NCBI GenBank assembly: GCA_965202905.1
Contig: OZ241868.1
Span: forward strand, 2,848,040-2,912,039
Source of the DNA: Alphaproteobacteria bacterium
Lineage (GTDB): Bacteria; Pseudomonadota; Alphaproteobacteria; MPNO01
Direction: 5' to 3'
DNA: 64,000 bases
How positions within the stretch are numbered: position 1 is the stretch's first letter; every line of letters begins with the position of its first letter. This document shows, one piece after another, positions 30,903 to 41,852 of this stretch. A program made the position numbers and the translations under genes. The notes under the pieces are model-generated. The model saw nothing but the letters and a program-made list of their open reading frames with translations, was not told the origin of the DNA and made no database searches.

Positions 30903-31162
30903 GGCTTTCCATTCCCTCTGAAGTTGAAGTCGGTCGGGCGGGCGTTGGGCAGGATGAGACCGTGCGCCGACCGTGCGCCGGATGCGGATCGTCGAGAAAC
31001 GAAAGTCGCTTTCGGTCCGGAGCGGCGGACGCTTCGCCGCCGCTCCATTCCGGGCCGCCCGGTGTTCGGGGCGCGGCGCCGCGCCGACGGAAGCAGGCTG
31101 CAACGCCACGCCTGACCGGTTGCGGACGGGCGCCGCCCGGTCGGCTGTACGGCGAATTCATG

Positions 31163-31191
31163 TTGACCGGCAGGCCGCCGGTAAGTACGAT
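31163..31191 (+). promoter_or_regulatory. Sigma70-type promoter (cassette copy B) upstream of precursor 3
   Basis: TTGACC-17 nt-TACGAT; RBS GGGAG before ATG 31282. Confidence 0.6.
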
Positions 31192-31281
31192 CGGCGCGTG
31201 TCGAAGGTGGATCGCTCACAGGCGGCCGACGGCGCGATACGGCGCGACAGCGCCCGACTCTTGAACTCAGGGAGTGAAAAC

Positions 31282-31451
31282 ATGACCAGCCATCGAGACG
31301 CCCTTGTACCCCCCCCCCCCCGCAGGATGAGGCGCGGGAACGCTGGACCCGGCCGATGATCCGCGAACTGGGCCGCGTCCAGAGGACGCATAGCGGCTCT
31401 GGCACTGGTGTAGTTGAGAATAGCGAATATTTCAACATCGACGCGTCGTGA
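31282..31451 (+). pseudogene. Lasso peptide precursor 3, frameshifted at a poly-C tract
   Basis: MTSHRDALV-[C13]-QDEARERWTRPMIRELGRVQRTH|SGSGTGVVENSEYFNIDAS; in frame only with C11 or C14. Confidence 0.8.
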
Positions 31452-31758
31452 CGCACGGCCGCCGTCACTCTGCGGAGAGCGCGGCGCCGGGGCTTGGCGC
31501 TACGGGTTCTACGCCGGACAGGCGTTGGACGCCGATGCCCTGATGGCCCTCAACCGACGGATCGACGCCTTTGCCGATGCGTTCGATGTCTTCAGACCCC
31601 ACTAGGCCCTCGGCAGACATCCCCCCGAGAGTATTTCGACCGACGCGCAGCCGACCGGAACCCTCCCGCCTCAATAATCCTGAACCCGGACGCCCCCCTT
31701 TGACTGCGGCTCACGCTGTCTTATTATGGCGCGAATCGAAAGGGAGGGCCGGCCGCTC

Positions 31759-32868
31759 GTGCAGCAAATCGATTACGCATCCAGCGCTTGTCCGGTGCGC
31801 GAGGATTTGATCGCCGCCCAGCGCACGGCGTGGCGGCGCCTTGCCGGGCCGGGGGCCTTCCTCGACGGTGCGCGCCGCGTGGCGGTCGCCCGCGAGGTGC
31901 GCAACGCGCCGTCCTGCGCGTTGTGCCGGCGCCGAAAGGAGGCGCTCTCGCCGTTTGCCGTGGACGGCGCCCATGACGGCCTGGGCGAGCTCGGCGAGAC
32001 CGAAATCGACGCCATCCACCGGATCGTCACCGATCCCGGCCGGCTCAGCCGCGAGTGGGTCGAGGGCCTGCTCGCCGCCGGGCTCGACGACCGGGAATAC
32101 ATCGAGATCGTCAGCGTCATCTGTGTCGTGACGGTCAACGACACCTTCCGCCGCGCGCTCGACCTGCCGCCGTTCGAACTGCCGGAGCCGGCCGCGGGCG
32201 CGCCGTCGGGCTATAGCGCGCCGGGCGCCAAGGCACATGACGGCTGGATCCGCTTGCTCGTTCCGGAGGATGTCGTCCCCGGCGACGGCGCGGTTTACAG
32301 CACGCTTGCGGTCTCGCCGGTGGTCAAGGCGCTGTCGCTGGTCCCCGAGGCCAAGCGGCATTACTGGGACCTCGCCGAGACGATGTACCTGCCCGGCGAA
32401 GAGATGCCCAACTTCGCAACCGGGATCAGGGCCATCGACCGTGTGCAGATGGAGATCCTCGCCACGAGAGTCTCCGCGCTCCATCAATGCGTCTACTGAA
32501 CCGGCTCCCATGCATTCATGCTCCGTGAGAGCATCCGGACTTCCGGGACCGCGTTCGATCTGCGCGCCGCGATGGGCCGGGCGCGCGGCGACGGCGGGGT
32601 CGAGAGCGGCCAGAACCTCGCCGACTTCGCCGAGGCGATCACGCTGCAAGACCGCGCCCGGACGGCCGGGCTACGCGATGTCCTGGCGCGCGAGCTGGGG
32701 GTGGAAGCCATGGTCGACGCCGCCGCTGTCGCTTCGGTGTTCCACGGCTTTGTCCGGGTCGCGGACTCGACGGGCGCGCCGCCGGCGGGCGCTTCGGGCG
32801 GCCGGGTGACGATGGAGTTCCGTGAGGAGCTTGGGATCAACGCGTTCTTCGGCGCCGCGCACCGCTAG
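31759..32868 (+). CDS. AhpD-like alkylhydroperoxidase-related selenoprotein (CxxU, UGA at 32497-32499)
   Basis: [24 protein letters not shown] continues in frame into ORF 32518..32868; hairpin ATGCTC-CGTGA-GAGCAT downstream. Confidence 0.82.
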
Positions 32869-32869
32869 G

Positions 32870-33976
32870 GTGGACGACGTGCGGTCGGTTATTCGCGACC
32901 GCGCGCTGGCTCTGGGGTTCGACGCGGCAGGCTTCGCGCAAGCCGCGCCCGGCGGGACCGCCCGGCGCGACCTCGCCGCGTTCCTCGCCAAGGGCTATCA
33001 CGGCGACATGGGCTGGATGGCCACGACCGCCGAACGGCGCTGCGATCCGCAAACGCTGTGGCCGGAGGCGAAAAGCGCGATCGTCGTCGGGCTCAACTAC
33101 GGTCCCGCCGAAGATCCCCTGGCGATTCTCGACCGGCCGGCCCGCGGGGCCGTCTCGGTCTATGCCCAGGGGCGCGACTATCACGATGTGGTTGGCAAGC
33201 GGCTGCGCGCGCTGGCGCGCTGGATCCACGAAAGCTTCGCCTGCGAGGTAAAACTGTTCGTCGACACCGCCCCGGTGATGGAAAAGCCGCTCGCCGGGCG
33301 CGCCGGGCTGGGCTGGCAGGGTAAGCACACCAACCTGGTCTCGCGCACGCATGGCTCCTGGCTGTTCCTGGGCGAGATCCTGACAACGCTGGCGCTCGCG
33401 CCCGACGCGCCGGAAGCCGACCGCTGCGGCGTCTGCCGGCGCTGTCTCGATGTGTGCCCGACCGACGCCTTCCCCGCGCCCTACCGGCTCGACGCGCGGC
33501 GCTGCATCTCGTACCTGACCATCGAGCACAAGGGCCATATCGCCGCCGGGTTCCGCAACGCCATCGGCAACCGGATCTACGGCTGCGACGACTGCCTGGC
33601 GGTCTGCCCGTGGAACAAGTTCGCGAACCGCGCGGCCGAGCCGGATCTGCGGCCGCGGATCGAGCTCGCCGCGCCGCGCCTGGAGGCGCTTTCCGCCCTC
33701 GACGACGCCGGCTTCCGCCGGGTCTTCTCCGGCTCGGCGATCAAGCGGCTCGGGCGCGACCGGTTCGTGCGCAACGTGCTGATCGCGATCGGCAATTCCG
33801 GGAATGTCGCGCTTGCGCCGAGCGCGGAGCGGCGGTTGGGCGACGACTCGCCGCTGGTCCGGGCGATGGCGGTCTGGGCGCTGTCCCGTCTGCTGCCGCC
33901 GGCCGATTTTGGGCGCCTGCGCAGCCGTCGCCTGCCGGGCGAAACCGATCCCGATGTCCGCGGCGAATGGCGATAG
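32870..33976 (+). CDS. queG: Epoxyqueuosine reductase
   Basis: [56 protein letters not shown]. Confidence 0.93.
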
Positions 33977-41219: not shown

Positions 41220-41852
41220 TTACGCGCCGGGCTCTGCGCCGAGCTTCTCGAGCACCGCCTCGACCTCCGGCCGGTCGCGGTAGTCGCGGCTGGAGAACCG
41301 GTGGCGGACGATGCCCTCGGCGTCCAGCACGACGATCATCGGCTTGGCGAAGCCGTACCACCGGCTGGTCTTGGGCGCGCTCGGGTCGATCAGGCCGAAT
41401 GCCGAGATGATGCGCGAACCCTTGTCCGAAAGCAGGGGGTAGGCAATCCGCCTGCGCTCCGCGAAGTCGGCGAGTCTGGACGCAACATCGTAGGTGACCG
41501 CCGCCAGCGCGTAGCCGAGCCGCATAACCTCATGGATCTGTCGATTCCAGGCGACCGCCTGGGACTTGCAGTGGGGTCACCAATCGAAGGACCGGGAGAA
41601 TATCAGGATCAGCCCGCGCTTGCCGCGCAGCGACCGGAAGTCGCGCTCGACCCCCATGTGATCGTTGGCGACGATCAACGCCGTAACGTCGGCGCCGATC
41701 TCCGGTCCGAGATCGAGCCGATCGACGGCGTCGGCGGCCTGCGCCGGCGGGCCGACGAGCCCGCCGATCGTCAAAGCCGCCAGCGCGACAGCGAAAGCGG
41801 TCGCCCGCAGCAGCGCCCCGGCCCGATTCGACCGCGCCCGATTTGACCGCAT
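41220..41852 (-). CDS. Exported peroxiredoxin/AhpC-TSA-like selenoprotein (UxxC, UGA at 41579-41577)
   Basis: Signal peptide; LIFSRSFDW-UGA-PHCKSQ continues in frame to YPLLSD; SECIS-like hairpin CCAGGC-GGTC-GCCTGG. Confidence 0.88.

Follow-up and report, generated by a model that had tools for sequence, protein, structure and literature searches.

Two open reading frames (ORFs) stand one behind the other on the forward strand of a 64,000-nucleotide stretch of alphaproteobacterial DNA (the window; positions 2,848,040 to 2,912,039 of contig OZ241868.1, assembly GCA_965202905.1), and the question they raise is whether they represent two genes or the two halves of one. The first ORF, which can be started either at an ATG at position 31726 or at a GTG at position 31759, terminates as HQCVY-TGA at 32497-32499. 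When this TGA is read through, the frame 31759-32868 (+) remains open to a TAG at 32866-32868; the junction reads ...S-A-L-H-Q-C-V-Y-UGA-T-G-S-H, and the downstream half completes a C-x-x-U-x3-H motif, in which U denotes selenocysteine (Sec). An initial annotation had proposed that this is one AhpD-like gene split at a UGA codon, and the open frame bears this out. Judged from the sequence, the region 31759-32868 (+) is a single gene that genuinely decodes UGA as Sec and whose predicted product is a 369-residue selenoprotein of family NF041238, a reading to which a probability of roughly 0.93 can be given. The competing explanations (two separate genes, a pseudogene, or read-through of the UGA by something other than Sec) together retain only a slim share.

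The read-through protein matches NF041238 with 410.4 bits, compared with a cut-off of 175, and the match covers positions 1-355 of the 357-position profile, running straight across the UGA. Against the genomic DNA, the same model scores 401.8 bits with "1 TGA". This model (AhpD_rel_CFYUT, "alkylhydroperoxidase-related (seleno)protein") has the same length as the predicted protein and the same C-x-Y-U-T motif in the same place, which is present in the window as CVY-TGA-T at 32488-32502. The motif is CVYUT in this gene and CFYUT in the model name; otherwise nothing of substance differs, and CVY is the commonest form of the motif among close relatives (59 of 116 database matches). NF041238 appears as a CxxU selenoprotein in a 2026 review (PMC13188914), where it is identified with the "hypothetical protein 1" found in the selenoproteome of the Sargasso Sea, and this review was the sole match in a full-text literature search for "NF041238". 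In the 2005 Sargasso Sea paper, hypothetical protein 1 is represented by four Sec-containing sequences that share the CXXU motif, and the table gives Cys homologues columns of their own (PMC1088965). With a curated model (NF041238) and a literature record that goes back to 2005, the family is not new, and the gene is an ordinary member of it. Its biology adds little, since the family, the CxxU motif and the selenocysteine insertion sequence (SECIS) have been described since that year. What matters is the annotation: a real 369-aa enzyme is recorded as a 246-aa stub, with the loss of the catalytic His and of one third of the protein.

Other family models place the protein near, but not within, known groups of AhpD-like proteins. 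The score for TIGR01926 (44.4 bits) lies below its cut-off of 81.8, and thus the protein is not a member of that peroxidase-related enzyme subfamily. Pfam CMD (PF02627) is passed marginally, at 23.2 versus a gathering score of 23.0, by the read-through protein only; neither half matches alone. The AhpD-like selenoproteins (COG2128/TIGR01926) and the CMD domain-containing selenoproteins (PF02627) share the CxxU chemistry and the fold of this protein but, unlike it, are single-domain proteins, and reviews list them as separate families.

The complete coding sequence, 31759-32868 (+), consists of 369 codons, including that of Sec247, plus the TAG; it is defined by the NF041238 match and by alignment. 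The GTG at 31759 is a likelier start than the in-frame ATG at 31726, because a Shine-Dalgarno-like GGGAGGG (31742-31748, +), whose function is presumed from its sequence, precedes it by 10 nt and because the 246-aa homologues in the databases begin at that column. Counted from this GTG, the TGA is codon 247, and the length of 369 aa given in the initial annotation agrees with the N-termini of the homologues. In one marine study, two RNA-library runs yielded contigs that span the UGA unchanged (X1, 32316-32645; X3, 32412-32635). Such contigs give no transcript ends or levels and may reflect carry-over of DNA; they are weak as evidence of expression.

If the TGA at 32497-32499 were a true stop, the locus would contain two separate genes, one encoding a protein of 246 aa and the other an independent 116-aa protein starting at the ATG at 32518. 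This is how gene callers read it: they yield the 246-aa stub (P0002 among the called products of this genome) and a downstream 116-aa ORF, and 112 of 116 matches in a collection of 5.8 billion proteins also end at C-x-Y, that is, at the position of the UGA. However, the databases hold the stub because gene callers stop at UGA. When the loci themselves were read at the nucleotide level, all 52 copies, drawn from 50 loci (the 30 top-ranking ones and 20 distant paralogues with 33-45% identity), had TGA at the C-x-x-U-x3-H column, and none had TAA, TAG or a Cys codon there. The script that read these copies demanded the C-x-x-U-x3-H motif and long open flanks, so that copies lacking the motif would have been missed, and every locus gave at least one copy. 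The supposed start of the second gene is not conserved, since relatives encode Met, Leu, Val, Phe or Arg at the codon that corresponds to 32518. In addition, the CMD match requires the read-through protein, the NF041238 match crosses the junction, and His251, which completes the catalytic motif, is located after the TGA. Two separate genes are thus very unlikely, and the downstream 116-aa ORF is a spurious product of gene calling.

Relatives that carry Cys instead of Sec are themselves single proteins. HMMER, run exhaustively against 1.84 billion representatives, gave 1313 relatives at E <= 0.001, of which the best 150 were taken; 147 of these were not among the earlier matches, and 28 of the 147 were full-length (at least 320 aa). 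Among these 28, Cys occupies the Sec column in 24, as the initial annotation had suggested checking: 23 have the whole E...C-x-x-C...H motif, and one has C-x-x-C without the Glu and His. Of the other four, Gly stands at the column in two, and the remaining two fall short of it. The shorter relatives among the best 150 repeat the truncated pattern, with 93 of 119 terminating at C-x-[Y/F/W]. Alignment thus indicates that a Sec/Cys pair exists in the family, the Cys forms being the more distant relatives (29-41% identity).

The TGA could also be a Cys codon (TGC or TGT) that has mutated in a decaying gene. A single base change would be enough, and a decayed partial duplicate of the 5' end of this gene does exist elsewhere in the genome. 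Nevertheless, the identical TGA is found in all 52 copies, in genomes of at least 17 genera, the downstream frame is intact and conserved, the synonymous sites of the hairpin that follows the TGA are frozen, and the Sec machinery is complete (see below for both). A pseudogene is therefore the most improbable of the explanations considered.

The Sec-decoding gene recurs in related genomes. A match is present in 48 of 61 of them (the source genome included), and an in-frame TGA is found in all listed rows that extend across query residue 258; a few rows have one further stop. NF041238 copies that exceed the cut-off, each with one TGA, number one in the source genome and five in each of three others (G002, G007 and G014). 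No match at E <= 1e-20 was obtained in 400 evenly drawn other genomes of the phylum when up to four candidates were scored in each, so that this sample gave no sign of the family beyond the order. Likewise, 14 control genomes gave no NF041238 match over the cut-off. A contig scan of the genome collection returned one weak partial locus only (L021, residues 207-238), which was of no use.

Three observations on individual loci may be added. Adjacent pairs of family members occur in relatives, divergent in L038 and in tandem in L045. The decayed duplicate in the source genome (L078, about 1350-1677, equivalent to about 2227783-2228110 of G000:C1) corresponds to positions 31440-31842 of the window and so takes in the sequence upstream of the gene together with its first ~28 codons; the duplicate is interrupted by a gap of ~135 bp, and GCG replaces the GTG start. 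Finally, the first ~70 residues of the orthologue in L036 (G009:C2, minus strand) are Arg/Gly-rich noise that cannot be aligned, which suggests a frameshift or an assembly error.

Decoding of UGA as Sec requires a signal in the mRNA, and the initial annotation had pointed to an inverted repeat, ATGCTC-CGTGA-GAGCAT, as a SECIS-type hairpin. This structure is present at 32518-32534 (+), starting 18 nt after the UGA. Its six-base-pair stem is formed by 32518-32523 and 32529-32534, and the loop, CGUGA (32524-32528), begins 24 nt after the UGA. A published model of the bacterial SECIS (bSECIS) describes an apical loop of 3-9 nt, an upper stem of 4-16 bp, G in the first two loop positions (mostly G[G|U]), a distance of 16-37 nt between UGA and loop, and a minimum free energy at or below -7.5 kcal/mol (PMC13188914). 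The hairpin is within range for four of these five features: its stem has 6 bp, its 5-nt loop carries G and U at positions 2 and 3, and 24 nt separate this loop from the UGA.

Conservation of the hairpin was assessed in a gap-free RNA alignment of the 60 nt that begin with the TGA, comprising 43 of the 52 copies (nine near-identical copies were omitted). The six pairs (columns 22-27 with 33-38) can form in 95.0% of cells, compared with 86.4 +/- 1.0% in shuffles, none of 500 of which was as high, although this control ignores relatedness and includes paralogues and close kin, which overstates independence. When the partners are slid out of register, only 26-54% of cells pair. Compensatory changes are seen at pair 22-38 (C-G in 21 sequences, A-U in 8, U-G in 5, G-C in 2, unpaired in 7), and pair 23-37 also varies (U-A 25, U-G 14, G-C 3); the three loop-proximal pairs scarcely change. 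Within the loop, G29 and G31 never vary and U30 rarely does. The local fold closes a CGUGN loop in 42 of the 43 sequences, and an RNAalifold consensus retained five pairs of the hairpin. Codon choice gives a similar picture. CTC encodes Leu in all 52 copies (its share of Leu codons in the rest of these genes is 30%), the Arg codon is CGT in 51 of 52 (9% elsewhere), and the Ser codon is AGC or AGT in 49 of 52. In DNA of 69% G+C, such frozen synonymous codons suggest that the RNA, and not the peptide L-R-x-S alone, is under selection. A wider stem of 8 bp (columns 20-27 with 33-40) was rejected: only 80% of its cells are paired, and the two outer pairs are mostly unpaired.

The overstated independence in the shuffle control counts against a SECIS function for this hairpin, and several other points do so as well. 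Conservation of the peptide L-R-x-S itself forces part of the nucleotide conservation. The energy of the core hairpin, -5.9 kcal/mol as a fixed structure or -6.5 kcal/mol in a 27-nt local fold, is weaker than the bSECIS value of -7.5 kcal/mol, which 28 of the 43 homologues do reach locally. When flanking sequence is included, unconstrained folding favours a shifted apical hairpin with the loop CUC (-24.0 versus -22.5 kcal/mol; P about 0.8 versus 0.1), and the stretch is not clearly more stable than its shuffles (z of -1.88 for 64 nt and +0.07 for 121 nt). In an Rfam search of positions 31000-33500 at E values up to 10, there were four matches at chance level and none related to Sec. On thermodynamic grounds alone, then, the hairpin of this gene does not stand out. 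The shifted CUC-loop register was rejected on comparative grounds, since it is only 53.5% paired across the family and 490 of 500 shuffles were as high. Comparison across the family thus argues that the hairpin and the conserved TGA together are more than chance.

For the hairpin to act, the genome must also contain the machinery for Sec. The initial annotation had named selA, selB, selC and selD as the genes to look for, and all are present in the source genome (G000): selA (558.8 bits) and selB (434.2 bits) are adjacent at 2419951-2423207, selD scores 311.9 bits, and a tRNA-Sec with the anticodon tca is called by ARAGORN; each of the three protein matches exceeds its cut-off. Thus, neither a lack of machinery nor a stop other than TGA among the 52 copies was found. 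The selD sequence sits within a 754-aa ORF with an N-terminal Pyr_redox_2 domain (L010 265-2529, +; about 1189959-1192223 of G000:C1). This is the Ndh-SelD fusion type, which is mentioned in the Global Ocean Sampling selenoproteome paper (PMC2398784).

The UGA might still be passed without Sec, or not only with Sec, either by a Sec pathway that inserts Cys under selenium shortage or by near-cognate read-through. Cys does work at this position in the distant homologues. However, a dedicated hairpin and a full set of selA, selB, selC and selD are what Sec insertion requires. In addition, the neighbouring AsnB-like, DusA and Amdase-like genes terminate in TGA, and therefore TGA is otherwise an ordinary stop in this genome and shows no sign of reassignment. 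Passage of the UGA by these other routes is accordingly quite unlikely.

The sequence on both sides of the UGA fits an active site with Sec at its center. In an alignment of 40 read-through sequences, made after 12 near-duplicates had been removed from the 52 copies, Glu232, Cys244, Sec247 and His251 are invariant, and Tyr246 is at least 90% conserved; Leu255, Arg256, Arg333 and Gly339, which like His251 lie past the UGA, are invariant as well. The active-site codons, C244-V-Y246-U247-T-G-S-H251, occupy 32488-32511 (+), and the CVYC..SH of solved AhpD-fold proteins aligns here with Cys at the Sec column. Glu232 (32452-32454, +), 12 residues before Cys244, aligns with the Glu of the AhpD proton relay. 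The relay residues are Glu36, Cys48, Tyr50, Cys51 and His55 in PA0269 and Glu118, Cys130, His132, Cys133 and His137 in Mycobacterium tuberculosis AhpD (PMC3141380). By alignment, E232-x11-C244-x-Y246-U247-x3-H251 is this relay, Glu-x11-Cys-x-Tyr/His-Cys-x3-His in AhpD and AhpD-like proteins alike, with Sec replacing the second Cys.

A profile of the alignment compared with the PDB retrieves AhpD-fold proteins over residues 189-345, including AhpD 6k40 (E 3.5e-15 over 189-343), whose CVYC..SH falls on the motif. An AlphaFold2 model (predicted local distance difference test score, 90.8; predicted template modelling score, 0.92) is a single, continuous, all-helical protein, although it was built with Cys replacing Sec, which is a reservation about it. 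The best Foldseek match of the model is 6k40_A (E 1.1e-3; template modelling score of 0.72 on the target). In VIA-align comparisons, AhpD-fold chains lie on model residues of about 160-355, with Z 13.2 for 6k40_B (174 residues aligned, root mean square deviation 3.0), Z 13.1 for 2oyo_A and Z 10.6 for 1gu9_C, scores that are inflated by the all-helical folds. The model thus indicates a two-lobed, all-alpha protein whose C-lobe (about residues 160-355) has the AhpD fold. The proposal in the initial annotation of a multi-domain selenoprotein is supported. The AhpD and AhpD-like proteins (1knc/1gu9 of M. tuberculosis; PA0269, 2o4d/2ijc; 6k40 of Deinococcus radiodurans; and the TIGR01926 proteins 2oyo, 2prr and 3c1l) have the same fold as this C-lobe (Z 10-13). 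In contrast to AhpD, the protein is about twice as long and has an extra N-terminal helical lobe with its own CxxC. Family alignment places this motif, C53-A-L-C56, at 31915-31926 (+); most members keep C53-x-x-C56, which one clade (L052, L054-L057) lacks. C53 and C56 might constitute a second redox site or a metal site.

Over its whole length, the model is matched best by human Sestrin2 (5t0n, 5dj4, 5cuf): with VIA-align, 5t0n_A aligns over residues 1-341 with Z 16.5 (239 residues aligned, root mean square deviation 3.3, about 10% identity). Sestrin2 has been described as twofold pseudo-symmetric (PMC4674687). Within the present protein, an internal duplication is not evident from sequence, hhalign of the N-lobe versus the C-lobe giving a probability of 18% and an E value of 0.0013 over 39 columns, and no sestrin family is among the Pfam matches of the read-through protein at E values up to 1. 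The redox Cys of Sestrin2 is in the N-terminal domain, whereas the catalytic motif of this protein is in the C-lobe. Since Z-scores run high for helical folds and sequence comparison fails to demonstrate homology of the two lobes, a two-lobed, Sestrin-like reading of the model is a resemblance only.

The protein probably carries out redox catalysis through its C-x-x-U motif. During translation, the mRNA hairpin at 32518-32534 would recruit SelB·GTP carrying Sec-tRNA(Sec), delivering Sec at UGA 247; the charged tRNA would be supplied by selA, selB, selC and the selD fusion. In AhpD, the second Cys is the attacking residue (nucleophile). The Sec247 selenolate, tuned by His251, Glu232 and Tyr246, would then attack its oxidised substrate, which could be a hydroperoxide or else a partner protein, for instance a peroxiredoxin, that bears a sulfenate or disulfide. 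Cys244 would resolve the adduct to give an intramolecular selenenylsulfide, which could be re-reduced by an external reductant or possibly by the C53-x-x-C56 pair of the N-lobe. A peroxide or peroxiredoxin as the true substrate is proposed tentatively, at odds somewhat short of even. No ahpC or reductase gene adjoins the selenoprotein gene, a further point on the opposing side, and with no partner gene beside it, the substrate is therefore a guess. A broader conjecture would make the family a prokaryotic, selenium-using counterpart of the Sestrin architecture, with two fused AhpD-like lobes in which C53/C56 shuttles electrons to C244-x-x-U247, forming a self-contained, two-centre reductase/peroxidase. 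This is doubtful, and it was not found in print in a narrow literature search. If it were true, the sets of five Sec-encoding paralogues in genomes of neighbouring genera would represent specialisation for different substrates.

The initial annotation also placed the gene directly upstream of queG-dusA. The order is correct here: queG (Pfam QueG_DUF1730 plus Fer4_16) starts 2-11 nt after the stop and is followed by dusA, a layout that makes co-transcription with the selenoprotein gene plausible. However, only L023 and L024, the two closest orthologues, share this linkage; neither queG nor dusA was present within about 1.5 kb on either side in the other 27 loci (L025-L051). Linkage that is restricted in this way says little about function. 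Upstream, the ~820 bp between an AsnB-like gene and the selenoprotein gene contain no convincing ORF. A strong G+C-rich hairpin (GGAGCGGCG...CGCCGCTCC) lies at 31017-31048, about 115 nt after the stop of the AsnB-like gene; Rfam gives only a chance miRNA match for it, and it is possibly a terminator.

Other genes of the source genome also contain in-frame TGA codons and, consequently, this genome may hold a sizeable selenoproteome. Sec-containing formate dehydrogenase was not found, as none of seven PF00384 matches and none of the 12 TIGR01553 rows has an in-frame stop. A script that allowed TGA in long frames was discarded as a search for formate dehydrogenase, being uninformative in DNA of this G+C content; AhpC-TSA and CMD scans served as positive controls, and one in-frame TGA is present in 4 of 10 AhpC-TSA matches and 3 of 10 CMD matches. 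One of these lies inside the window: a candidate AhpC-TSA/Prx-like selenoprotein at 41220-41852 (-), with a TGA at 41577-41579 and the motif W-U-P-H-C (UxxC), a signal-peptide-like N-terminus, and a hairpin, CCAGGC-GGUC-GCCUGG, after the TGA. Another, at G000:C1:1249218-1249580 (L079 1483-1935, +), is a 150-aa Bcp/peroxiredoxin with T-P-G-U, the classic TxxU motif of Prx selenoproteins. The five remaining one-TGA matches, two AhpC-TSA and three CMD, are located on G000:C1 at 2922114-2922479, 2266444-2266890, 1226626-1226868 (-), 3744800-3745018 and 1946341-1946526 (-).

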